Sequence record: SRR20825006_271
Reading direction: 5' to 3' (one strand)
DNA length: 61,796 nt
A program made the translations under genes and the position numbers. Positions 1 through 11,204 of the stretch are shown here, piece by piece; the stretch's first letter is position 1, and every line of letters starts with the position of its first letter. Below the pieces are notes generated by a model that searched no databases, had not been told where the DNA came from, and saw only the letters and a program-made list of their open reading frames with translations.

Positions 1-543
1 ATGATTGACGATATTGCGTTTCAAACCAATTTGCTGGCGTTGAATGCCTCGGTTGAGGCGGCGCGGGCCGGGGAGGCGGGCAAAGGCTTTGCCGTGGTGG
101 CGGTGGAAGTGCGCCGCTTGGCCCAATCTGCGGCAGAAGCCTCTAGCGAGGTGAAGCAATTGATTGAGCAATCGGCCAGTGAAGTGGGCAGCGGCTCGCA
201 ATTGGTGTTTGATGCGGCCAAGCAATTAACGGCGATGCTGGATGCAGTGCGCGAAAATTCGGTGCTGATGGATGAGATTGCGGCGGAAAGTAAATCGCAA
301 GCCTCTTCCATTGAGGAGGTGGATTTGGCCGTGCGGCAAATGGACGAGATGACCCAGCATAATGCGGCACTGGTTGAGCAAACTAATGCGGCCATTGAGC
401 AAACGGAAAATCAGGCGATTGGGTTGGATAAAATTGTCGAAATTTTCCGGCTTGATGACACGATGCAAAGCCGGGCGGTGCAGGGCGAAGCCGAAATGCC
501 GATGCAGGACAGTGCCGCCGCGTGGATCACCAAATCCGCCTAA
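1..543 (+). CDS. Methyl-accepting chemotaxis protein, C-terminal signalling domain (5' truncated by window edge)
   Basis: MCP hairpin-tip motif [38 protein letters not shown] and methylation helix [15 protein letters not shown]. Confidence 0.95.
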
Positions 544-550
544 ATCCAGA

Positions 551-1000
551 TTATTTCTGACGGGCTGCTTCCAGCCCGTTGGTCAATTTTTTCAAAAGGC
601 GTTGCAGCTCATTGAGTTCGGCATGGTCTAACGATGTGTTGTTGACCATGCAGGCGGTAATGTCTGGCGCTTTTTTTTGCAGCGCGCGTCCGGTGGGGGC
701 GAGGCGCACAATGATTTGGCGTTTATCCTTATCGCCCGGGGTGCGCTTAATGTGCCCCAACGCCTCCAGCCGCTTGAGCAGGGGGGTGAGGGTGTTTGTG
801 TTCATCCGCAAGATTTTGGCCAGTTCGGTGACCTTTTGCCCATCGCGTTCCCACAACAGGGTGAGGGTTATATATTGCGGATAGGTGAGCCCAAGCCGCG
901 CCAGATGCGGCGCGTAGCTTTGGTTGATGACGTGGGACGCGGTGTACACCCCATAACAGAACATATCCTCAGCGCGGGTGGGCAATTGCTCCATTGTCAT
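551..1000 (-). CDS. OhrR-like MarR-family transcriptional regulator
   Basis: MFCYGVY (OhrR LCFALY equivalent with redox Cys), LGLTYPQY, TLTPLLKRLE, DKR wing; second Cys near C-terminus; ATG at 1000 has AAGGA upstream. Confidence 0.88.
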   Translation of the reverse strand: MTMEQLPTRAEDMFCYGVYTASHVINQSYAPHLARLGLTYPQYITLTLLWERDGQKVTELAKILRMNTNTLTPLLKRLEALGHIKRTPGDKDKRQIIVRLAPTGRALQKKAPDITACMVNNTSLDHAELNELQRLLKKLTNGLEAARQK

Positions 1001-1020
1001 CTTGCTGTCCTTAAGTTTGG

Positions 1021-1091
1021 TCGTGCACGATATTATTATTGACATGGGCATGACATTTCATCAACACTGTCAAATTATATCGTGCACGATA
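1021..1091. promoter_or_regulatory. Two palindromic operator candidates (TCGTGCACGA 1021-1030; TATCGTGCACGATA 1078-1091) in the divergent promoter
   Basis: Same perfect palindrome core twice, each about 16-20 bp upstream of one of the two divergent start codons. Confidence 0.7.
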
Positions 1092-1107
1092 CAAATGGAG
1101 AAAGAAG

Positions 1108-1329
1108 ATGAGCTGGTTGCCGAATTTGAAAACAGAAACTGCAGAAGAAGGTTTTGAGCTGGCGATTAAACTCTCGCGGATGGCGGTGAAGAAAACCCAA
1201 CCAGACGACGCCACCCGCACCAAACTGCGCGACGATTATGCTAACAGTGCTGACAGTTTGACACTGGCGTCACAGGTCGTGGCGACGAATTTTCAGACCG
1301 TTGCGGCGGCTAATGATTATTGGCGGTGA
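1108..1329 (+). CDS. Hexameric tyrosine-coordinated heme protein (HTHP)
   Basis: 73 aa; WLP.L.T.T.EEGFELAIKLSRMAVKKTQPD...Y...FQTVAAANDYW matches the Ruegeria (Silicibacter) pomeroyi HTHP as recalled; heme-ligand Tyr retained; GGAG RBS. Confidence 0.9.
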   Translation: MSWLPNLKTETAEEGFELAIKLSRMAVKKTQPDDATRTKLRDDYANSADSLTLASQVVATNFQTVAAANDYWR

Positions 1330-1451
1330 TGGCGCTCGATATCTGTGTTCAAATTGGAATTGTTTGTTTTGAAACGTAAAACTGGTACTCGACACGGCGA
1401 TCTATTTAGGTGAACATGGATAGATGAATCAGAAATTTAGACTTAAAATTT

Positions 1452-2789
1452 ATGCCCAAATCGCGTGAGATACACTGGACGAACAAGTCGGTCCTTAAAC
1501 TCGCCCGGCAAGGCGATCCTACAAAAATCATACAAGAAAAGGCTCGTTCCATTGTACTGAAGGCGCAGGAACAAGGCTGGTCTGGGCCGCCTTTTAATCC
1601 CATGGAAATCGCCAAAGCTATGGGCGCTGTTTTTGAAGCAAATTCAAGTATTGCCGATGCGCGTCTGATTGCAACCGATAATGGACCAAAAATTGAATAT
1701 AATCCTCGTCAACCGAGGGAGCGAGTGCGTTTCTCGATAGCGCATGAAATCGCCCATTTGCTATTTGAGGATTGGTACGAGTACGTGCGGAACAGAGGTG
1801 GAAGCAAAGATATAAAGGATGAATGGCAGCTTGAAATGTTATGCAACCTAGCGGCTTCGGAATTTGTACTTCCTATTGGAAGTCTGAAGCCATCTGGTGA
1901 CATTTCGAGGATGGAAGCGCTAATGAAGGAAAGGCGTGAATATGATGTGTCCGCTGAAGCCTTTCTTATTCGCATTGCTAAGACATCTACGGCCCCAATT
2001 GGTGTATTCTTCGCATCTCCCAACGTTGATATTGAGAATGAGCGTAAATATCGCATTGATTACGGAGTTTTATCGCCAACTGCTCCGGAAATAAATCTGC
2101 CTAGTATAGAAGTGCCAAACGGCAGTATTGTTCACGCTTGTACTGCAATTGGGCATACTGATAATGCCATAGAAAATTGGATAAGCGGTAACCCAACTCA
2201 AATAGAATGTGTTGGTTTGCCAGGATACCCGGGAAGCATCTATCCGCGCGTGGCGGGGTTGGTTAGATTTGAACATCCGCGCGAAGATCGGAGTTTGATT
2301 AGGACTATCCACGGTGATGTACTTGATCCTCGAGGCAATGACTGCAAGATTATTTGTCAATTAGTCAATGACAAAGCTACGAAATGGGGCGGAGGCATTG
2401 CTCGCAAGACTGCGAGAAAATTTCCTGAGGCCGAAAAACAGTTTACTGAAAATTTTTTGAATATTCAAAGCGACCAGCGTCTTGGTAGTGCGATTTTTAG
2501 TGTGGTCGATAGTAAACTAGTTATTGCTAGCTTAGTTGGTCAAGTCGGCTACGGAAAATCTTCGCTACCAAGAATACGGTACACGGCATTAGAAAATGCA
2601 TTGGAGGCAGTTGCAGAAAAGGCAGTTTCTTTAGGAGCTTCGATTCATATGCCTCGAATTGGGACTGGTGCTGCGGGTGGGACTTGGGCTGTTATTGAAG
2701 AAATACTTGATGATGTTGTGGTGCGGAGAGGGCTCGAGATTACAGTGTATGAGGTTCCGCCCAAACGTGTTCAATTAGAGCTATTTTAG
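1452..2789 (+). CDS. IrrE/ImmA-family Zn metallopeptidase fused to C-terminal macrodomain (DarG/TARG1/SCO6735-like)
   Basis: RFSIAHEIAH (HExxH) and ExxCNxxASEFVLP in N-half; C-half GDVL..VND...WGGGIA...SLVGQ...SIHMPRIGTGAAGGTW macrodomain motifs. Confidence 0.85.
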   Translation: MPKSREIHWTNKSVLKLARQGDPTKIIQEKARSIVLKAQEQGWSGPPFNPMEIAKAMGAVFEANSSIADARLIATDNGPKIEYNPRQPRERVRFSIAHEIAHLLFEDWYEYVRNRGGSKDIKDEWQLEMLCNLAASEFVLPIGSLKPSGDISRMEALMKERREYDVSAEAFLIRIAKTSTAPIGVFFASPNVDIENERKYRIDYGVLSPTAPEINLPSIEVPNGSIVHACTAIGHTDNAIENWISGNPTQIECVGLPGYPGSIYPRVAGLVRFEHPREDRSLIRTIHGDVLDPRGNDCKIICQLVNDKATKWGGGIARKTARKFPEAEKQFTENFLNIQSDQRLGSAIFSVVDSKLVIASLVGQVGYGKSSLPRIRYTALENALEAVAEKAVSLGASIHMPRIGTGAAGGTWAVIEEILDDVVVRRGLEITVYEVPPKRVQLELF

Positions 2790-2800
2790 ATTGGACCTAT

Positions 2801-4417
2801 ATGAAGTCTAAATTCAAAGTTATACTGATCTCGGGGCCGATTTGTTCGGGGAAAACATCACTTGTTGAGCAATTGCGAGAAAGGCATCAAGCTGTCGTAA
2901 TAAAAACTAGTGATTTGATAAAAAATAGACTCCCAAATACAAAAGATGAAAGAAGAGCCCTTCAAAGGGCTGGACAAAAGCTGGATCGTGAAGTGGGCGG
3001 AGCTTGGGTTGGTACCGCACTCGAACAAGTTATTTCGGATAAGTTAGATGGAGCACTTAAAGGCCTATTTGTAGTTGATTCAGTTCGGACACGGGAACAG
3101 ATTGACACGATCAGACAGGCATATAGCCCCGATGTTCATCATATCCATCTTACAGCGACACCCAAGGAGTTAGAACGCCGTTTCGAGGAGCGTACGCGGT
3201 CGGTAGATGCTGAGGTTTCTTATAAGGCGCTTAAGTCCAATAGAACGGAAAAACAAATTGATAACCTGAAAATGTATGCAGATGTTGTTGTCGATACGGA
3301 TCGTTGCAGTGCGGAGGCGGTTCTTGTTCGTGCTACAGCTTTGTTGCAGCTATATCCTCGTTCTAATGAAGCATGTGTTGATGTTCTTATTGGTGGCCAA
3401 TATGGAAGTGAAGGTAAGGGGAACATAGTAGGCCATATTGCACCCGAATATGATTTAATGATCAGAGTCGGCGGTCCGAATGCGGGTCACCAAGTATATG
3501 CTGAGCCTGCTCCAGAAAAATACTACCACCTTCCATCGGGGACCGGACGAGCACCAGAGGCGCAACTTTTGTTAGGGCCTGGTGCGGTAATTTATCCCCC
3601 AAAACTATTGGAAGAAATACAAATTCATAAAATTACGCCTAGTCGCCTAAAGATCGACCCGCAAGCCATGATCATTTCAAGCAAAGATATTGACGAGGAG
3701 AAGCGTAAATTCGGAAACATAGGATCGACTGCGCAGGGAGTGGGGATAGCGTCTGCACGTAAGATGACTGGCAGATCTGACTACAAAGTTAAACCCTCTT
3801 TTTTGGCAAAAGACTGTGCAGATTTGAAACCATTTATCGCCAGTGCAAGGCGAATTATTGCTGATGCAATGGTAGAAGGGAAAAAGATATTGCTTGAAGG
3901 TACACAAGGTACCACTTTAAGTCTTCACCACGGACAATATCCGCATGTTACAACGCGAGACACCACTGTATCCGGGTGTTTGGCGGATGCTGGCATAGCT
4001 CCTTCAAACGTTAGAAAAATAGTTATGGTCTGTCGAACGTATCCTATACGTGTTGGCGGCCCATCAGGGGACTTGGTCAATGAGGTGGAGATGGATGAAA
4101 TTAGCGAGCGCAGCGGAATAAAGCTGGACGAATTGAAGAAAACGGAAAAAACGACAACGACAAATAGGGATAGAAGAATTGCTGAATTTGACTGGGTACA
4201 ATTCCGCGATTCAGTTCAACTTAATGGCCCTACGGACATTGCGCTTACGTTTGTGGACTATTTCGATGTAAAGAATCGCTCCGCCTATCGCTTCGAGCAA
4301 CTGAGTACTGAGACAATTCGATTTGTGGAAGAAATTGAAAGAGTATCTGGGAGGCCAGTCTCATTGCTCTCTACCAATTTTAACTGGCGTAATGTCATTG
4401 ACAGGAGGGCATGGTGA
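2801..4417 (+). CDS. P-loop (deoxy)nucleotide monophosphate kinase-like domain fused to adenylosuccinate synthetase homologue of PurZ/PurZ0 type
   Basis: aa 1-185: GPICSGKT Walker A, RALQRAG, VVDSVR; aa ~193-538: GGQYGSEGKG, GGPNAGH, IGST, LLEGTQG, YPHVTTRDTT, RTYPIRVG, TTTTNRDRR, LTFVD. Confidence 0.85.
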   Translation: MKSKFKVILISGPICSGKTSLVEQLRERHQAVVIKTSDLIKNRLPNTKDERRALQRAGQKLDREVGGAWVGTALEQVISDKLDGALKGLFVVDSVRTREQIDTIRQAYSPDVHHIHLTATPKELERRFEERTRSVDAEVSYKALKSNRTEKQIDNLKMYADVVVDTDRCSAEAVLVRATALLQLYPRSNEACVDVLIGGQYGSEGKGNIVGHIAPEYDLMIRVGGPNAGHQVYAEPAPEKYYHLPSGTGRAPEAQLLLGPGAVIYPPKLLEEIQIHKITPSRLKIDPQAMIISSKDIDEEKRKFGNIGSTAQGVGIASARKMTGRSDYKVKPSFLAKDCADLKPFIASARRIIADAMVEGKKILLEGTQGTTLSLHHGQYPHVTTRDTTVSGCLADAGIAPSNVRKIVMVCRTYPIRVGGPSGDLVNEVEMDEISERSGIKLDELKKTEKTTTTNRDRRIAEFDWVQFRDSVQLNGPTDIALTFVDYFDVKNRSAYRFEQLSTETIRFVEEIERVSGRPVSLLSTNFNWRNVIDRRAW

Positions 4418-5082
4418 CAAAAGATGAACTTGAACTTCTAATTTCAGACTGCCCCACTTTGTACCACATGGCAGAGCGTGGTTCATGGGAAAGCATTAAA
4501 ACTAGCGGTCTGCTGAGTACAACGGCGTTGCTGGACAAATATGAAGTGTCTGGAAAACAGCGCGATGCTATTGAGAGTGCACATCGTCCTGTGAGCGTAG
4601 AAGTGTTGCATGACACACTTCCACGGGCCGTTGTTCGAGATCAAATCCCTATGAGCGATTCTGGCCTAAGGCGTTGCTTGCCTGAGTATATAGAGCCATC
4701 TGACTGGTACAGGCTACTAAACTCTAAGGTATTTTTTTGGCTTTCCAAGGAAAGATTGCACAAGCTGACGGGCGCCAAATCATACAGAGAACTTGAACAT
4801 GATGTACTGGAGGTTGACACTAGATCGCTTATTGAGAAGCATTTTGATCGTATTTGGCTTTGTCCGATAAACAGTGGTTGCACTAAACCCTTTCCTCACC
4901 CGAGAGATGAGCGTATTTTTACACAAATAGAAGAATATGATTACTCAGGTTGGCGGAAAAAAAGGAAATCTTGTGAGGTGGCGGTCGAGCTTGCAGTAGA
5001 GTATGCAGTCCATGATATCCGAAATCATGTTAAGCGTGTGGTCGTGATGAAGGGAACCGAGGTGTTGTCGGTAATCGAATGA
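4411..5082 (+). CDS. Putative DarT-like ADP-ribosyltransferase-fold protein (DUF7002-like)
   Basis: N-terminal LYHMAERGSWESIKTSGLLS resembles DarT LYHxT..NL.SI...GLLS; VFFW strand; C-terminal AVELAV with candidate catalytic Glu; ATGGTGA overlap with upstream gene and GGAGGG RBS. Confidence 0.65.
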   Translation: MVTKDELELLISDCPTLYHMAERGSWESIKTSGLLSTTALLDKYEVSGKQRDAIESAHRPVSVEVLHDTLPRAVVRDQIPMSDSGLRRCLPEYIEPSDWYRLLNSKVFFWLSKERLHKLTGAKSYRELEHDVLEVDTRSLIEKHFDRIWLCPINSGCTKPFPHPRDERIFTQIEEYDYSGWRKKRKSCEVAVELAVEYAVHDIRNHVKRVVVMKGTEVLSVIE

Positions 5083-5109
5083 AAATAAGTGCAAGTTTTT
5101 AGTAAACTC

Positions 5110-5146
5110 AAAAAAACACCGCCACAAATCTGTGACGGTGCATTTT
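5110..5146 (-). terminator. Intrinsic terminator, possibly bidirectional
   Basis: Minus strand CACCGTCACA-GATT-TGTGGCGGTG followed by T7; lies between convergent genes. Confidence 0.8.
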
Positions 5147-5170
5147 CTGCTGGCTTTATCCACCCTAACT

Positions 5171-6529
5171 TTAAACACTCGCCGCAGCACTCAGCCCCTT
5201 ATCCAACGCCCCAATCATCCGGGTTACATCATCTGCCGTGATCACCAGTGGGGGTGACAGGATGATATTATTGCCAGAGACGCGGATGGTTACGCCTGCC
5301 TCATAGGCGGCGTCGAAGGCGGCGGCGATCGCTGGTTTTGAGGCGGGGGTTTTGGTGGGGCGGTCGTCGACCAGTTCGATGGCGGCCATGAGGCCGATGC
5401 CGCGGGTGTCGCCGACGATCTGGTGTTTTTCTTTGAGTTGCGCGAGGCCGTTTTGCAGCTCAATGCCGCGGGCTTTTGCGTTTTCCCACACTTTGGCTTT
5501 TTTGATTTCGGCCAGGGTGGCGAGGGCGGCGGCGCAGCCGACCGGGTGGGCCGAATAGGTGTAGCCATGGCCAATATTGCCCACAGCGTCCTTATTGCTT
5601 TCGAAGGCTTCGACCACTTTTTCGCCCATCATGGCGGCGCCGAAGGGGAAGTATGAATTGGTGATGGCTTTGGCGGTGCACATCATATCTGGCGCCACGC
5701 CCCAGAGGCGCGAGCCGTGCACATCGCCTGTGCGGCCAAAGGCGGTGATCACTTCATCGGCGATCAACAAAATGCCATGCTTGTCGCACACCTCGCGCAC
5801 CATGGGCATAAAGCTTTTGTGCGGCACGATCACCCCGCCAGCGCCCAGCACTGGCTCCATAATCATGGCGGCGATTGTATCTGCCCCTTGGAAGGCGATT
5901 TCATCTTCCAGCATCGCGATGCAGCGGTTGGCGATTTCTTCTGCATTGTCGGTGCCGAATGGATTTCGGTACGTCCATGGGGCGGCGATTTGAAAGCAGC
6001 CAGCCAGCATCGGCTCATAATTGCGGCGGAAATTGGCGTTGCCATTCACGGACGCGCCGCCAAAATGGGTGCCGTGATAGCCTTTTTTGAGGCTGATAAA
6101 TTTGGTGCGTTCGCCTTCGCCGCGCACCTTATGATATTGCCGCGCCAGGCGCAGGCAGGTTTCAACGGAATCGGAGCCGCCGGAGGTGTAAAATGCGCGG
6201 GTGAGGCCTTCTGGTTTGAACCATTCATTCAGCTCAAAGGAAAGCTCCACCGCTTTATCGTTTGTGGTGCCGCGGAAGGCGGAATAATAGGGCAGTTCGG
6301 CCAATTGCTCTGTCATGGCCTGTTTGATGCTGTCGACCGAATAGCCCAGATTGGCGTTCCACAGGCCACCCACCGCGTCTAGCGTGGTGTGGCCGTCAAT
6401 GTCGGTGATTTCCACACCCTTGGCGCCGCGCATCATTTTGGGCGGATTGTTGCGCATATCGGCCGGGTGGGCCATAGGGTGCCACATATGTTTGGCGTTG
6501 TTTTCTTTCAAAAAGTTGGAATCGAGCAT
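5171..6529 (-). CDS. Class-III PLP aminotransferase (omega-amine:pyruvate type)
   Basis: LDAVGGLW, SGGSDSVE, GYHG, IADEVITAFGRTG, PLP lysine TAK, HGYTYSAHP. Confidence 0.93.
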   Translation of the reverse strand: MLDSNFLKENNAKHMWHPMAHPADMRNNPPKMMRGAKGVEITDIDGHTTLDAVGGLWNANLGYSVDSIKQAMTEQLAELPYYSAFRGTTNDKAVELSFELNEWFKPEGLTRAFYTSGGSDSVETCLRLARQYHKVRGEGERTKFISLKKGYHGTHFGGASVNGNANFRRNYEPMLAGCFQIAAPWTYRNPFGTDNAEEIANRCIAMLEDEIAFQGADTIAAMIMEPVLGAGGVIVPHKSFMPMVREVCDKHGILLIADEVITAFGRTGDVHGSRLWGVAPDMMCTAKAITNSYFPFGAAMMGEKVVEAFESNKDAVGNIGHGYTYSAHPVGCAAALATLAEIKKAKVWENAKARGIELQNGLAQLKEKHQIVGDTRGIGLMAAIELVDDRPTKTPASKPAIAAAFDAAYEAGVTIRVSGNNIILSPPLVITADDVTRMIGALDKGLSAAASV

Positions 6530-7195
6530 CTAGGCCTCCTGAACGGCTGATATGCCAAGCTTTGTAAGCGCTTCGGCGTAACTTTTATTGGGGTGTTGCA
6601 CGTCGAAATGAACAATGTTCATGCCCGCCTTGCGCGCGCCTTCAATGTTGCGGCGCTGATCGTCCACAAACACGCAATGGGCGGGGGCAATGTTCATTTG
6701 ATCGAAGATGAGTTGATATGCGCGCGGATCGGGCTTCAAAATGCCCGTATAGGTGGCATCCACGATGCATTCGAAATCTGCCATGAAGGGCAGTTTTTCT
6801 TTAAAATCAGCGCCGTAAAACAGATCCAGCTCATTGCTGAGGATGGCCAGGCGCACGCCATTTGCTTTGGCGGTTTCAATTGTGTGCAAAAATTCTGGGC
6901 GGATGATTTCCATTGGGTGCGCGGCGCGGGCGGCGACAACAAAGTCTGCCATTTTTGACCAGTCTTTGCCCACCAGTTGACCGGTTTCTTTGGCGCGGAT
7001 GGTCCAATAATCACGCTCGGTGATTTCGTCGCGCTGCATACGTCGCCACAGCTCATCCGATTCCGGCGCAAACGGGCCTTGCCAAGTGAGCGTGCCCGGC
7101 GCGAGGCCGAGGGCTTTTTCGGTGAGGGGATGGGTTTCAAACATGGTGCGGGAAATGACGCCGCCAAAATCCAAAACCAGTGCGCGATCAGTCAT
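6530..7195 (-). CDS. HAD-superfamily hydrolase (subfamily IA)
   Basis: Motif I LDFGGV (DxG variant), LSN, KPDPRAY, FVDD. Confidence 0.88.
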   Translation of the reverse strand: MTDRALVLDFGGVISRTMFETHPLTEKALGLAPGTLTWQGPFAPESDELWRRMQRDEITERDYWTIRAKETGQLVGKDWSKMADFVVAARAAHPMEIIRPEFLHTIETAKANGVRLAILSNELDLFYGADFKEKLPFMADFECIVDATYTGILKPDPRAYQLIFDQMNIAPAHCVFVDDQRRNIEGARKAGMNIVHFDVQHPNKSYAEALTKLGISAVQEA

Positions 7196-7201
7196 AATCA
7201 C

Positions 7202-7975
7202 CTAACGAATGAGCTTTTGAACATTGGGATGCAGCACGCCGCCAATGGCAGTGGTGATGCGGGCGGAGGCGGCGGCCACATTGCGTTTGACCTTGGTTAC
7301 CAACTCATCGCTTTTGCGGGTGATGGGCATGGCCACAGCAATGGCGCCTGCGGCGGAGCCATCGGCATTAAAATAGGGCATGGCGAGGCCAGCAACGTCT
7401 GATTCAAAGCCATGTTCGTTGAGGTAAAACCCATCTTCTTTGGCTTTGAGCACCCGCTGGCGAATCGCGTCTGGGTCGGTTTCGGTAAACTTGGTGTATT
7501 TCCCCAATTGCTGGCGCAGCGCGGCCTCCATCAGATCGGGTTCATTAAAAGCCAAAAAGGCGATGCCGGACGCCGTGGCGTGGAAGGGCAACGGCTCGGT
7601 CGGATCGATCATCACCACGGTGCCACGGTGGGGCTCTTTGTGTGCGATGGTGATCAATGCGCTCGGTCCGGCCACGCTGGCGTGTGCGGTTTCATGAGTG
7701 ATTTCGCACAGCCAATCCACTGTTTGGGTGGCAATAGCGGTGATCGGCGTGGTGGCTTCGCGCACCCGCGCCAAATGCAAGAAGCCGCTGCCCAGCCTGT
7801 AGGCCTTGGTGATTTTGTTTTGCTCAATGAAGTGATGCTTGATCAGGGATTTGAGAATACGCCGCGTGGTCGCCTTGTCCAAATCGGCAAGGCGCGCCAA
7901 TTCTGACAAGCCAATTTCTGGCTGTGTGGGCGTAAAATGGCTCAAAAGGCCCATGGCTTTATCTACAGTTTTCAT
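7202..7975 (-). CDS. IclR-family transcriptional regulator
   Basis: N-terminal HTH GLSELARLADLDKATTRRIL, YRLG, PFHATASGIAFLA effector domain. Confidence 0.93.
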   Translation of the reverse strand: MKTVDKAMGLLSHFTPTQPEIGLSELARLADLDKATTRRILKSLIKHHFIEQNKITKAYRLGSGFLHLARVREATTPITAIATQTVDWLCEITHETAHASVAGPSALITIAHKEPHRGTVVMIDPTEPLPFHATASGIAFLAFNEPDLMEAALRQQLGKYTKFTETDPDAIRQRVLKAKEDGFYLNEHGFESDVAGLAMPYFNADGSAAGAIAVAMPITRKSDELVTKVKRNVAAASARITTAIGGVLHPNVQKLIR

Positions 7976-8110
7976 AAGGCGAAAAAATCAATTGCTTCAC
8001 ATGTTCATAAAAATCTTGACTCAGATCGGTTCACAATGCAACCATTAAATGTGCCGATGGTGATAATAATGAACCGTTGGTAGAATTTCGAACGCTGTAG
8101 GGAGGAAATC

Positions 8111-9064
8111 ATGCGTGCGATCCGTTCACTTATCTCGGTGGTCCTGTTGGGACTGGCGACCATAATGGCTGCACTTACGCCAGCCATGGCTGAATATCCG
8201 GAAAAACCTGTTTCATTTGTGGTGCCATTCCCACCGGGGGATTTGGAAGATGTGCTGACCCGCATGATCGCAGAAGAGTTTCAAACTATGTATGGCGTGC
8301 CCGCAGCAGTGGTGAACAAGCCTGGCGGCGGTGGCGGGCCTTTCCCCGGCGCAGCGGAAGTGGCGCAAGCGCCTGCTGATGGATATACGATCGGTTCGTT
8401 CGTGGTGGATATTCCGCTGGTTGGTCCCTATGTGGGCATTCCAGCGTTGGAGCCAGATCCATTTGAGCCCGTTGGCATTTTCTTGACCTATCCGTTCGTG
8501 ATTGCGTCTTCAAAAGCGGCGCCATATCAAAATGTTGATGAGCTGGCCGCCTTTTCAAAAGACAATAAATTGCTGCTTGGCCATTTCGGTTCGTTCCTGA
8601 TCCCAACCCAGGTGACGATGGCGCTTGGTGAAGAGCGCGGCGTGCAATTCTATTCTAATGCAGCGTTTGATGCGCTGGATTGCAACACTTTGGCTTCCGG
8701 CGATGCGGATGTGATCAACACCACCTTGCAGTTGATTTTGCCATGTCTCGACAAGGTTAATGTGTTGGCGACAGTTACCACGGATCGCATTCCGTTGGTG
8801 CCAGATAGCCCAACCGTTGGTGAGCTTGAGCCTTCGCTAAACATTGCGCTTTGGAATGGCTTGTTTGTGCATAAGGACACACCAGCAGATGTGCGCGAGA
8901 AAATTGCCGCCGCAGCCCAAAAGGCATTGGCCAGCGATGCCGCGAAAAAGCTGGCTGAAGAAACTGGTGCCGGTGTTTACTGGCAAGGCGCTGAAGAGGC
9001 CGCTGCGCGGATTGAAGCAGATCGAGCGGTGGCCGACACGGTTGCTCGCTTTGCAGAAGAATAG
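8111..9064 (+). CDS. tctC: Tripartite tricarboxylate transporter substrate-binding protein (TctC/Bug)
   Basis: Signal peptide, YPEKPVSFVVPFPPG, VNKPGGGG, APADGYT. Confidence 0.9.
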   Translation: MRAIRSLISVVLLGLATIMAALTPAMAEYPEKPVSFVVPFPPGDLEDVLTRMIAEEFQTMYGVPAAVVNKPGGGGGPFPGAAEVAQAPADGYTIGSFVVDIPLVGPYVGIPALEPDPFEPVGIFLTYPFVIASSKAAPYQNVDELAAFSKDNKLLLGHFGSFLIPTQVTMALGEERGVQFYSNAAFDALDCNTLASGDADVINTTLQLILPCLDKVNVLATVTTDRIPLVPDSPTVGELEPSLNIALWNGLFVHKDTPADVREKIAAAAQKALASDAAKKLAEETGAGVYWQGAEEAAARIEADRAVADTVARFAEE

Positions 9065-9069
9065 GTTGA

Positions 9070-9100
9070 ATTTGGCCGGGGCAATTTGCTCCGGCCAAAT
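9070..9100 (+). terminator. Stem-loop after SBP gene (mRNA stabiliser or partial terminator)
   Basis: ATTTGGCCGGGGCAA-T-TTGCTCCGGCCAAAT inverted repeat. Confidence 0.6.
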
Positions 9101-9124
9101 CATATTGGTGAGTTTGATCTAACC

Positions 9125-9703
9125 ATGATTCAAGAAAATGAGATTGGCGGCAAATCTAATCGGGCCGAGAGGGTCGAGGATTATTTTGTTTCGCCTTACA
9201 GCTCGGCACTGGTTTGGTTTGGCGTTTGCACTTTTTTGGTGGCAATTTTTTTGGCCAGCCAATTGGGCGTGCAGGCCAAGTTTTTTGACAATCTGCCATT
9301 GGAAAAACAGCCGGGTCTTTGGTCTGCCATCGGCATTATCGGTATGTTGTTCTTTGGCTTTTTCCAAATGCTGCAATTTTGGTTTCACCGCAATGGGCTG
9401 CAGGCACCGGGCTTTGTGGCCGAAGCTTTGGTGTGGCTGAAAGCCGGGGAATATGTGCTGTGGTTTATGGCCTATGTGAGCTTGGTGCCGCTGACGGGTT
9501 ATTTGCCCACCACCATCGGCTTTCTGCTGCTGATGACTTGGCGGCTGGGCTATCGCGCGGGCCAATATTATCTGCTGGCGGCGCTGACCGGGCTTTTGAT
9601 CGTGGTGGTGTTTAAGAGCTTCCTGCAGGTGAAAATACCCGGTGGGGCGCTTTATGAATATCTGCCTGCGGCGGTGCGCGGCTTTGCCATTCTATATTTA
9701 TGA
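9125..9703 (+). CDS. tctB: TTT small membrane subunit TctB
   Basis: 4-5 TM segments, FKSFLQVKIPGG C-terminal motif, position between tctC and tctA. Confidence 0.85.
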   Translation: MIQENEIGGKSNRAERVEDYFVSPYSSALVWFGVCTFLVAIFLASQLGVQAKFFDNLPLEKQPGLWSAIGIIGMLFFGFFQMLQFWFHRNGLQAPGFVAEALVWLKAGEYVLWFMAYVSLVPLTGYLPTTIGFLLLMTWRLGYRAGQYYLLAALTGLLIVVVFKSFLQVKIPGGALYEYLPAAVRGFAILYL

Positions 9704-9725
9704 GTTCGGGTTTTAGGGGCGATTT

Positions 9726-11204
9726 GTGGAACTCTTATTGACAAGTTTAAGCGCGCTGGCGCGGATTGATGTGGCGATTGCGCTGTTTGTTGGCTCGGTT
9801 GGTGGCGTGATTATTGGCGCCATTCCGGGGGTGGGGCCAGCTATTGCCATCGCGATTTTGCTGCCGGCGACCTTTGCGCTGGAACCGATTGTAGGGTTGA
9901 CCCTTTTGTTGGGCATTTATGGCTCGTCCATGTATGGCGGGGCGATCCCGGCCATTTTGGTCAATGCGCCCGGCACAGCGGTGAACGCACTGACCACTTA
10001 TGACGGTTTCCCCATGACCAAGCGGGGGGAGGCCGCACGGGCCTTATCGCTGGCGTTTGGTGCCAGCTTCTGCGGCGGGATCATTTCGATTATCGCGTTG
10101 ATGTTGCTGTCGCCCGTGTTGGCTGCGGTGGCGCCAATGTTTGGCTCGCGCGAAATTTTCCTCGCGGCCTTATTGGGCATGGTGCTGGTGGTCGTAACCC
10201 ATCGTGGGCAGGCGCTGGCGGCGGGTGCGTTGCTATGTTTGGGTATTTTTATCAATACTATTGGATTGGAATCCATACGCTACACCCAGCGATACACTTT
10301 TGATCAGCCCTGGCTGGCCTCTGGTATCGATTTGATTGTTGTGGTGCTTGGCCTTTTTGCTCTTTCACAGGCATTTTTGCTGCTGGTGGGCGAAGATGAA
10401 CATAATGAACCGCCTGCTTTAGTGGGTAAGCTTTTTGACGGGCTGCGGGAAGTGCTGCGGATGCCGAAAATCTTTGTGCCTTCTGCCGGCTTTGGTGTGG
10501 TGATGGGCATGATCCCCGGTGTGGGCGAGTTTCTGGCTCAGTTCTTTTCCTATTCGCTGGCGCGCAAAACATCTGGCAATGGTGAGAATTTCGGCAAAGG
10601 CGCACCCGAGGGCTTGGTGGCATCAGAGGCGGCGAATAATGCGGTGCCCGCTGCGGCCATGATCCCGCTTTTGGCATTGGGCATTCCGGGCGAGGCCCTG
10701 ACCGCAATGATGCTGGCGGTGTTTTATGTGCACAATGTGATTCCTGGTCCGCAATTGTTTGCCAATGATTTTGACTTCATTCTCAGCCTTTATCTGGCAT
10801 TGATTGTGCTGAATGTGTTGGCCTTTGCCTTCTTGCTGGGCACCACCAAATGGCTCACCCAAGTGGTGCGCATTCCCAATCGTTTTTTGGGGATGGTGAT
10901 TTTGGTGCTGAGCTTTGTCGGCATCTTTTCACTACGTAACTCAATCATTGATTGTGCCATTGCGGCGGCCTTTGGCATGTTTGGTTTGATGCTCAAGCGG
11001 TTGAATTTGCCGATTGTGCCGATCATTCTCGGCATGGTGCTCGGCGGCATCATGGAAGTGAAATTCCGCACCAGCATGGCACGGGTTGAGACGGTTTTCG
11101 ACTTTATTGAGCGGCCCGTGGCGCAGGTGCTTTTCGGCATCATCGTGATTGTGCTGGTGGCTCATTTCTATTCGCTATTTCGCGCTAAAAATCCAAGGAC
11201 TTAA
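9726..11204 (+). CDS. tctA: TTT large membrane subunit TctA
   Basis: GAIPGVG, YGGAIPAILVNAPGT, EAANNA, LGIPG repeats; GTG start. Confidence 0.93.
   Translation: MELLLTSLSALARIDVAIALFVGSVGGVIIGAIPGVGPAIAIAILLPATFALEPIVGLTLLLGIYGSSMYGGAIPAILVNAPGTAVNALTTYDGFPMTKRGEAARALSLAFGASFCGGIISIIALMLLSPVLAAVAPMFGSREIFLAALLGMVLVVVTHRGQALAAGALLCLGIFINTIGLESIRYTQRYTFDQPWLASGIDLIVVVLGLFALSQAFLLLVGEDEHNEPPALVGKLFDGLREVLRMPKIFVPSAGFGVVMGMIPGVGEFLAQFFSYSLARKTSGNGENFGKGAPEGLVASEAANNAVPAAAMIPLLALGIPGEALTAMMLAVFYVHNVIPGPQLFANDFDFILSLYLALIVLNVLAFAFLLGTTKWLTQVVRIPNRFLGMVILVLSFVGIFSLRNSIIDCAIAAAFGMFGLMLKRLNLPIVPIILGMVLGGIMEVKFRTSMARVETVFDFIERPVAQVLFGIIVIVLVAHFYSLFRAKNPRT

Follow-up and report, generated by a model that had tools for sequence, protein, structure and literature searches.

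A kinase-fused PurZ-like synthetase gene in a conserved three-gene cassette with macrodomain and ADP-ribosyltransferase-fold partners

Phages arrive at 2-aminoadenine (Z) DNA by way of PurZ-type enzymes. Here we analysed a stretch of 61,796 nucleotides from sequence record SRR20825006_271 (the window), in which a single open reading frame (ORF) on the plus strand, at 2801-4417, encodes a protein of 538 residues. It joins an N-terminal P-loop domain resembling nucleoside monophosphate (NMP) kinases (residues 1-192, 2801..3376, plus strand) to a C-terminal synthetase of the PurA fold (residues 193-538, 3377..4417, plus strand), which motifs and trees place among PurZ-like enzymes of a Ser-type clade. 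The fused gene stands between a gene for an M78 peptidase-macrodomain fusion and a gene for a DUF7002 protein with an ADP-ribosyltransferase (ART) fold, and this three-gene cassette is the most informative fact on its role. We put the probability at roughly 55% that the product is a bifunctional kinase-PurZ-like enzyme of an ADP-ribosylation conflict cassette (anti-phage, abortive-infection or addiction type), and such a conflict cassette would probably be anti-phage.

The first-pass annotation, made from the letters of this region, had read 3377-4417 as a homologue of adenylosuccinate synthetase, and the translation agreed with it: residue 193 begins at base 3377 and the stop codon ends at 4417. 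Pfam Adenylsucc_synt matched this C-terminal part of the ORF at 2.1e-53. Residue equivalences were taken from a structure-anchored alignment that included E. coli PurA (NC_000913.3), and positions are given in E. coli numbering. As had been noticed before, the catalytic Asp13 was replaced by Ser203 (codon 3407-3409, within GGQYGSEGKG) and Thr271 by Ile416 (4046-4048, within TYPIRVG). G298/A299/T300/T301 corresponded to Thr451-Thr454 (TTTT, 4151-4162), and the following NRDRR aligned Asn455 with G302, Arg456 with R303, Asp457 with R304 and Arg458/Arg459 with R305/R306; the TTTT loop and the PurA-type Arg behind it had both been read correctly. The same was true of the Asp in LTFVD, where T330/K331/D333 became Thr483/Phe484/Asp486 (Asp486 codon 4256-4258). 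Furthermore, T128 was replaced by Ser309 and R131 by Gln312, and K16, N38 (Asn227), Q224 (Gln369) and the catalytic acid H41 (His230) were retained. Pyrococcus horikoshii PurA, with GGQWGDEGKG, SFPTRVG and GTVTGRRRR in a phmmer alignment, gave the same contrasts with the window. The domain measured 346 residues, close to the annotated length of about 345 and in the length class of archaeal PurA and PurZ.

None of the named family models reached its cut-off. The top NCBIfam model was NF003295 for archaeal short PurA (260 bits, cut-off 368), followed by TIGR00184 for bacterial PurA (196 bits, cut-off 396) and NF038379 for PurZ (192.7 bits, cut-off 300). The closest relatives in the PDB were Pyrococcus horikoshii PurA 2d7u/5k7x, which aligned end to end at 1e-50; bacterial PurAs and phiVC8 PurZ (about 6e-32), S-2L PurZ (6.4e-28) and 7vf6 (2.4e-25) came next. 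7vf6 is PurZ0 of Gordonia phage Archimedes according to the available part of PMC12884076.

Ser203, Ile416, Thr483 and Asp486 were invariant in 32 diverse fused homologues. Phage PurZ sequences (phiVC8, Burkholderia phage Bm1, Acinetobacter phage 53) had Ser, Ile, TTVT and Asn at both 330 and 333, and PurZ0-type sequences (Arthrobacter phage Preamble, Streptomyces phage Galactica, Microbacterium phage Jera) had Ser, Ile, TTVT and Thr/Asp. The PurZ0-type label of the latter three was our own assignment from their actinophage origin and one shared clade, and their database records say only PurA-like or 2-aminooxy adenylosuccinate synthetase. Because Ser and Ile are shared with PurZ and PurZ0 and the Thr/Asp pair is kept, the window domain, as judged from its residues, has a PurZ-type base pocket together with a donor pocket of PurA/PurZ0 type. 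In S-2L PurZ, S23 lies 3.7 Å from the 2-amino group of deoxyguanosine monophosphate (dGMP), and S23, T273 (of the loop tip T273-T276) and Q308 are described as PurZ-specific substrate contacts, as far as the accessible text of PMC8342488 goes. Both the Ser and the Ile had been credited in the annotation with making room for this 2-amino group; the role of Ser is stated in that part of the paper, whereas a role of the Thr-to-Ile change was not found there.

These two residues are not peculiar to one sequence. A HMMER scan with the synthetase domain against 1.84 billion representative proteins gave 7985 matches at E <= 1e-3 and 597 at E <= 1e-30. Residues were counted in the 121 of the best 150 matches that covered the domain (query start <= 12, query end >= 290); 40 of them had a long N-terminal extension and 81 stood alone. 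Ser was found at the D13 position in 116/121 (the others were two Asp, two Gly and one Cys, the Cys row being apparently frameshifted), and Ile at the T271 position and Asp at the D333 position each in 118/121. Since they were conserved across the fused homologues and these representatives, Ser203 and Ile416 cannot be chance changes in one sequence. One Asp row (P0346) was a true archaeal PurA with 540 bits for NF003295, and one Ser row (P0287) also passed the NF003295 cut-off with 377 bits. Seven other Ser-type stand-alone rows that were tested, and the second Asp row (P0381), remained below the PurA and PurZ cut-offs.

Phylogeny placed the window outside the named families. We built two quick trees of 75 rows each, with the fused and stand-alone rows thinned and the frameshifted row P0311 omitted, and a careful tree of 46 rows (IQ-TREE, LG+C20+F+G4 by posterior mean site frequency profiles; support as ultrafast bootstrap / SH-aLRT). 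The outgroup was a set of bacterial PurA (E. coli, the nearest genome G001 and Brachyspira). In the careful tree archaeal PurA (P0346) was basal and all Ser-type rows formed one clade (100/99), within which PurZ0 (100/100), PurZ (97/90) and a kinase-fused subclade (96/90) were recovered. The last contained 19 rows including the window, 17 fused and two stand-alone, and every fused row fell inside it. The quick trees agreed, and the branch order among the three subclades was not resolved. The comparison with PurA, archaeal PurA, PurZ0 and PurZ, which the first-pass annotation had proposed, thus left the window outside the housekeeping PurA clades. As the PurZ and PurZ0 clades both exclude it, the window enzyme is in neither named family; by clade and by pocket it is best described as PurZ-like. 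The earlier assignment to PurZ/PurZ0 therefore stood as far as the common Ser clade and pocket residues are concerned, but not at the level of family, where a third clade marked by the NMP-kinase-like fusion takes its place. These results revealed that the Ser/Ile 'PurZ signature' is common to a very large clade, in which the characterised PurZ and PurZ0 make up two branches only. The third branch, fused to an NMP kinase, occurs in phage replication modules and in bacteria alike, and its bacterial genes are locked into a conserved cassette with a putative ADP-ribose writer and eraser.

The N-terminal domain carries a Walker A motif, GPICSGKT, at residues 12-19 (bases 2834-2857). Pfam matches on residues 1-170 were AAA_18 (1.7e-10), AAA_33 (4.1e-09), Zeta_toxin and a weak dNK, and the kinase part of the PADLOC dCTPase model, which describes a kinase-fused anti-phage deaminase, matched at 1e-10. 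An AlphaFold2 (AF2) model of these 192 residues from 27 homologues reached a mean pLDDT (per-residue model confidence) of 90.4, and Foldseek placed it closest to the AMP-bound adenylate-kinase-related protein 3lw7 of Sulfolobus, then to UMP/CMP kinase 1uke and AK1. G12, G17, K18, D93 and R127 were invariant among fused homologues, with R96 and R131 nearly so. The modelled fold resembles that of NMP kinases, and the Walker A, Asp and lid Arg residues are all retained.

Gene 1 (1452..2789, plus strand, 445 residues) ends 11 bases before the fused gene and was identified by Pfam, PADLOC and PDB sequence matches. Its N-terminal part is an M78 (ImmA/IrrE, CapP-like) zinc peptidase with HEIAH at residues 98-102 (bases 1743-1757), and its C-terminal part, at about residues 280-435, is a macrodomain of the TARG1/ALC1/SCO6735 type. 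Pfam gave Peptidase_M78 at 5.4e-07 and Macro at 9.5e-04, PADLOC gave capP at 7.7e-16 (188/242 positions), RmrA models and DarG at 0.0095, and the M78 domain matched IrrE in the PDB at 1e-3. The macrodomain matched 5e3b (7.5e-24), 2afc and 2fg1 (about 1e-23), ALC1 (CHD1L, 2.7e-07) and, weakly, TARG1 (0.15). No helix-turn-helix (HTH) partner of the M78 domain was recognised, by eye only, among ORFs of at least 25 residues in 1052-1451. Several divergent cassettes have an extra upstream ORF (L087:3504-4172, L058:5059-5589, L055:1478-2038) that is sigma-70-region-2-like, a winged HTH or a second M78 peptidase, which suggests CapH/CapP-like transcriptional control in some lineages.

Gene 3 (4411..5082, plus strand, 223 residues) starts within the fused gene and overlaps its stop by 7 bases. 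Pfam DUF7002 (PF22531) matched it at 6.3e-70, and its AF2 model (pLDDT 85.8, predicted template-modelling score 0.85) retrieved ARTs only in Foldseek, with DarT first (7omw, probability 0.99) and pertussis/cholera-type ARTs behind. Structure comparison with VIA-align gave a Z score of 10.2 for DarT1 8baq (root-mean-square deviation 3.6 over 159 residues), 7.7-9.4 for other DarT structures and 7-8 for Tpt1/KptA. DUF7002 thus gains a fold assignment, that of a DarT-like ART. Sequence identity to DarT was 10-13%, and Pfam gave only DUF7002; a sequence search of the PDB returned nothing usable (best E = 1), and ESM Atlas returned DUF7002 clusters only. Two residues, His19 in the first strand and Glu193 in a late one, were invariant in the DUF7002 alignment and may well occupy the positions expected for ART catalytic residues. 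A complex prediction of the 538-residue protein with DUF7002, run without controls, scored 0.01.

The three genes travel together. We collected 101 loci with the fused gene, 12 from genomes, 80 from metagenomes and 9 from viral collections, and searched for DUF7002-like ORFs with a hidden Markov model from our own alignment, some matches being as weak as 1e-7. The Brachyspira loci L014 and L015 were left out of this set; L014 proved to be an ordinary PurA with GDEGKG. The same genes in the same order were present in 12/12 genome loci with a full-length relative, although L007 and L012 had split or partial matches for a flanking gene and the fused gene of L012 was itself interrupted. The taxa were Methyloligella, Pseudooceanicola, Roseibium, Sphingomonas, Breoghania, Xanthobacteraceae, Binatia and a deltaproteobacterial metagenome-assembled genome, so that named loci span Alphaproteobacteria, Binatia and that one genome. 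Across all loci with enough flanking sequence, the M78-macrodomain gene lay directly upstream in 74/83 (at least 1450 bp upstream), a DUF7002-like ORF directly downstream in 87/96 (at least 700 bp downstream), and the complete cassette was present in 71/81 with both flanks sufficient. Neither partner was seen in the viral contigs L127-L130 and L132 or in L108, where the fused gene is followed downstream by a Schlafen/AlbA_2 gene. L123 and L131 had the ART gene and no M78-macrodomain gene upstream, and in L051, L074 and L124 a partner lay at another place of the locus, in the first two of them on the opposite strand. This cassette with its macrodomain and DarT-like ART had escaped the first-pass annotation, which was right that the context in the window is non-phage.

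A fourth gene after DUF7002 was found only in L004 (8279-9433), L005 (8276-9433; the same locus as L125), L006 (8279-9397) and L012 (about 8218-10162). It encodes about 372-385 residues with a weak Peptidase_M48 match (2.4e-4), and its start coincides with the DUF7002 stop or lies only a few bases from it. It is absent from the window and does not belong to the core.

The fused gene is accessory, rare and patchy. Only 7/401 genomes of the class had any synthetase match at E <= 1e-20, and the fused gene occurred in two of the 401, G104 and G244 (apparently split in G244); in G252 the kinase and the synthetase were separate neighbouring ORFs. Apart from two small genomes discussed below (G366 and G068), all tested carriers of PurZ-like genes (G104, G252 and G092) also had a canonical purA of 580-595 bits. 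The nearest genome, G001, lacks the fused gene and has a single PF00709 gene, a canonical purA of 430 residues. G001 aligned with window positions 1-1330 and 5172-8000 at 96% identity, and the interior was unrelated, so that an insertion of 3.84 kb (1331..5171) is specific to the window, with a MarR-family regulator gene on one side and a class-III aminotransferase gene on the other. The slot in G001 (L044:311-3443) holds 3.36 kb of other DNA, in which a Dam-like N6-adenine methyltransferase gene of the D12 class is accompanied by three ORFs of 209, 215 and 329 residues that had no Pfam match; this could be a restriction-modification module of an unusual kind or another defence module. GC content was 0.449 over 2001-4000 versus 0.50-0.55 in the surrounding DNA. 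We found no direct or inverted repeats at the insertion boundaries, and the seven promoters predicted in 1000-5300 were no excess over shuffled sequences (7.3 +/- 3.1). Thus the cassette was acquired horizontally, is translationally coupled and forms a low-GC insertion in a variable slot, and its fused enzyme is not a housekeeping one.

The inserted DNA comprises three genes only, without a dATPase, dGTP pyrophosphatase, integrase or structural gene. No datZ, mazZ or DNA polymerase gene adjoins them in the window, in line with the first-pass annotation; dutZ, dmtZ and dpoZ were missing from the cassette and its flanks, and no canonical purA was found within the window. However, the non-phage context holds for the window and not for the enzyme, which adjoins family-A DNA polymerase in phage contigs. 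The fused gene was part of replication modules in three contigs of uncultured phages (L128:2792-8677, L129:4189-8581, L130:5633-13645), which contain PolA, DnaB, primase and a fusion of uracil-DNA glycosylase (UDG) to PolA; it was located beside the polymerase, a DnaB-like helicase or a primase, with a von Willebrand factor A (vWA)-domain gene between PolA and the fused gene in L128. In our trees the phage fused genes interleaved with cassette genes inside the fused clade, and because of this PurZ-like chemistry is the economical assumption for the fused enzyme in general. The three phages are candidates for Z-type genomes with a built-in NMP kinase.

We infer substrates, phosphate donor, order of events and a defence role for the cassette as follows. 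The synthetase would, as PurZ/PurZ0 do, phosphorylate a guanine mononucleotide at O6; dGMP is the most likely substrate, and GMP a possible one. GTP would be the phosphate donor, since the domain retains the Asp and Thr of PurA and PurZ0 as Asp486 and Thr483. Aspartate would then displace the phosphate and yield N6-succino-2-amino(deoxy)adenylate. The kinase domain may phosphorylate one of the nucleoside monophosphates of this pathway; an example is the step from 2-aminodeoxyadenosine monophosphate (dZMP) to the diphosphate (dZDP) that host GMP kinase performs for phage PurZ. Host GMP kinase follows PurZ/PurB in phages, as stated in the part of bioRxiv 10.1101/2025.10.22.683976 at hand. Furthermore, the macrodomain would serve as ADP-ribose eraser, DUF7002 as writer and the M78 domain as trigger or regulator, and reversible ADP-ribosylation would be coupled to the conversion, or drain, of guanine nucleotides toward nucleotides of the 2-aminoadenine pathway. 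The fused enzyme would serve DNA-base replacement in phages and would have been recruited into a mobile conflict cassette in bacteria. If it does act on (d)GMP, bacteria would be putting Z-pathway chemistry to use in a conflict, and the manipulation of nucleotide pools would be tied to ADP-ribosylation in a new way. A bolder version, which we consider unlikely, would make the cassette an immune system built on captured phage Z-base chemistry: on infection the fused enzyme would divert (d)GMP to N6-succino-2-aminoadenylate and 2-aminoadenine nucleotides, these would poison or mark replicating phage DNA or act as substrate or signal for the DarT-like ART, and the M78-macrodomain protein would be trigger and eraser in one. 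If true, this would be the first case in which cells, and not phages, exploit the 2-aminoadenine pathway.

A number of observations weigh against a conflict cassette or against the proposed chemistry. Arg456 is PurA-like, and the six PurZ/PurZ0 references have Lys (four), Arg (one) or Leu (one) at this position. The insertion by which S-2L PurZ excludes the ribose 2'-OH (described in the accessible part of PMC8342488) is absent from the window domain, and both features bear on the choice between ribo- and deoxynucleotides. Of the two phage families, PurZ0 is the GTP type and PurZ the ATP type. The literature is inconsistent on this point: PurZ uses ATP or dATP according to the portions available of PMC8342488 and bioRxiv 10.1101/2025.10.22.683976, and PurZ0 prefers ATP and PurZ prefers GTP according to section 24 of PMC12884076. 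PF22531 matched in 8/401 class genomes, only two of which had the fused gene, and in four other DUF7002 genomes that were examined the gene stood alone among unrelated genes with no macrodomain gene adjoining. These solitary DUF7002 genes, 26-34% identical to that of the window in the three with a BLAST match, weaken the view of DUF7002 as an obligate toxin that needs a macrodomain eraser. The neighbours of the cassette were often ordinary (chaperonin, extensin-like protein, and in the window the aminotransferase). In favour of a conflict role, defence-type neighbours were seen at several loci, namely HsdS (L009), HsdM/HsdS (G252), a ResIII helicase (L123), Schlafen/AlbA_2 (L108) and, beside a solitary DUF7002 gene, Abi_C (L215), but the association with defence islands is anecdotal. 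PADLOC-DB 2.0.0 has no model that matches the synthetase domain or DUF7002, with partial domain matches only (capP, RmrA and the kinase part of dCTPase), so the cassette is not a recognised defence system. Finally, in two genomes of one genus, G366 (L033:7740-8783) and G068 (L034:7030-8067), the sole PF00709 homologue is a PurZ-type gene, and for this reason a Ser-clade enzyme may, in general, also serve ordinary purine metabolism.

No canonical purA was found in G366 and G068 (1.6-1.8 Mb, completeness 91 and 99%). The G366 protein has GSTGKG, PIRV and NFANY, and in the careful tree it came out, with a long branch, as the sister of phage PurZ (100/99). Either a PurZ-type enzyme would serve core metabolism here, or these would be bacteria with Z-pathway chemistry. 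The PurZ-type gene lies between a cytidylate kinase gene and a gene of the Ham1 family (non-canonical purine NTPase), followed by rpsA.

These two genomes, which apparently live with a PurZ-type gene alone, also favour the idea that the fused enzyme is a divergent housekeeping adenylosuccinate synthetase using IMP, aspartate and GTP, as do the fold, the retained K16, N38, H41, Q224, R305 and D333, and the archaeal PurA model at the top of the NCBIfam matches. Asp13 is conserved in 99% of a PurA clade of 251 sequences (PMC12884076, section 24). We rejected the housekeeping reading, which we regard as highly improbable: the catalytic base is Ser in 116/121 relatives, all PurA cut-offs were missed, the domain falls outside the PurA clades, and its distribution is that of an accessory gene, found in few of the 401 genomes, with normal purA kept in three tested carriers and the low-GC insertion missing from G001. 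A quite improbable but less remote alternative is that the cassette is cargo of a mobile element or prophage that makes 2-aminoadenine nucleotides for the DNA of the element, with the ART and macrodomain as passengers or protectors and the chromosomal copies as remnants. It would explain why the fused enzyme stands beside PolA, DnaB or primase in L128-L130 and L132, and it agrees with a terminase gene upstream in L050 and with a gene downstream of the fused gene in L133, which encodes a nucleoside deoxyribosyltransferase (NDT)-like DUF4406 protein and recalls the DmtZ of PurZ0 phages (described in the accessible part of PMC12884076). Two full cassettes are on IMG/VR contigs (L125, L126). However, L125 is identical in sequence to the Roseibium chromosome locus L005, and for this reason a 'viral' label alone is weak evidence. 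The window insertion lacks a polymerase and the other genes named above, and the maintenance of the three-gene order in 71/81 loci over distant lineages is unlike the decay of remnants; all three ORFs are intact and conserved.

It is also unlikely, if somewhat less so, that the three proteins form a small-molecule pathway, in which an unusual nucleotide, signal or toxic analogue is built or edited. In one such scheme the ART could ADP-ribosylate the product of the synthetase or use an NAD-derived guanine or hypoxanthine nucleotide, the macrodomain could trim it, and the amine donor need not be aspartate. The translational coupling of the synthetase and ART genes by the 7-base overlap is what such a pathway would predict, and the ART gene is still beside the fused gene in L123 and L131, where the M78-macrodomain gene is not directly upstream. 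The loop at the aspartate site also differs, with TTTT-N-R-D in the window, G-x-x-T-G-R-R in PurA and T-T-V-T-K-K-V in PurZ. TARG1-type macrodomains act on carboxyl-ester-linked ADP-ribose, and a succinyl product would offer two carboxylates. On the other hand, T301, R303 and R305 are the aspartate contacts of PurA, and all three are kept as Thr454, Arg456 and Arg458; moreover, the nearest folds of DUF7002 are the nucleic-acid-modifying DarT and Tpt1. A bifunctional enzyme in an ADP-ribosylation conflict cassette is the reading that we prefer.

The components resemble several known systems without matching any. PurZ0 (7VF6) has, like the window, a short PurA fold, Ser at D13, Ile at T271, GSE, Thr/Asp at 330/333 and a place in the Ser clade, but it belongs to a separate clade, shares about 27-30% identity, has a TTVT-Q-K-V loop instead of TTTT-N-R-D and lacks the kinase fusion; its PDB E-value was 2.4e-25 compared with 1e-50 for archaeal PurA. 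Section 24 of PMC12884076 reports that 98/98 PurZ0 genomes also encode dutZ and that a DpoZ-type polymerase gene is in the Z gene cluster, whereas the dutZ, dmtZ and dpoZ neighbours are missing in the window. PurZ (phiVC8 6FM1, S-2L 7ODX) shares the Ser/Ile base pocket, the Thr-rich loop tip and the short fold, and its phage genes adjoin PolA as the fused relatives do in phages; it differs by Thr after the P-loop Ser (GST) and Asn at 330 and 333 (NF[AC]NY), where the window keeps Thr/Asp, and by its partners datZ/mazZ, which are not found by the window gene. Archaeal short PurA (2D7U/5K7X) is the best PDB match, of the same length class and with the same GTP-site Asp; however, its Asp13, Thr/Ser271 and GTVTGRRRR loop are all replaced in the window, and it is basal to the Ser clade. 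DarTG, whose ART modifies bases of single-stranded DNA, likewise has an ART gene and a TARG1/ALC1-class macrodomain gene in one operon, and DarT1 was the structure nearest to DUF7002 (Z 10.2). However, the window cassette has no DarT match at the sequence level, its macrodomain is fused to M78 and not to the DarG C-terminal domain, and a kinase-synthetase gene lies in between, giving the order macro / kinase-synthetase / ART instead of a two-gene unit. The M78 domain of gene 1 matches the capP profile of CapH/CapP from CBASS (cyclic-oligonucleotide-based anti-phage signalling systems), but the HTH partner of that pair was not recognised by window gene 1. Kinase-fused anti-phage dCTP deaminases resemble the fused gene in joining a P-loop kinase to a nucleotide-converting enzyme, which is a synthetase here and not a deaminase.

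We found no description of the cassette in searches of 8.1 million PMC papers and of bioRxiv, although the supplementary trees of PMC12884076 and PMC8342488 might show bacterial Ser-type sequences, and no mention of DUF7002 in the same sources. A survey of NAD/ADP-ribose systems in viruses (PMC9503650) had no occurrence of adenylosuccinate, PurA, M78 or ImmA, and adenylosuccinate synthetase appeared in the literature on anti-phage and conflict systems only in passing, in a PUA-domain context.

Two other genomes of the class contained stand-alone relatives in different surroundings. G252 (L031:6150-10980) has a run of four genes directly beside the type I restriction genes hsdM and hsdS; they encode a protein of 701 residues with an RNase_H_2-superfamily domain and a P-loop kinase, a PurZ-like protein (347 residues, 36% identical to the window domain), a dCTP-deaminase/dUTPase-like protein and a deoxynucleoside kinase. 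In G092 (L032) a PurZ-like gene is paired with a dCTP-deaminase (DCD)-like gene. Both runs are candidates for further defence modules that convert nucleotides, or for helpers resembling DutZ. At the upstream edge of the window, positions 1-543 encode the C-terminal part of a methyl-accepting chemotaxis protein, and the first 440 bases matched at least a dozen other places in G001 at 70-84% identity, as members of a large paralogous family.

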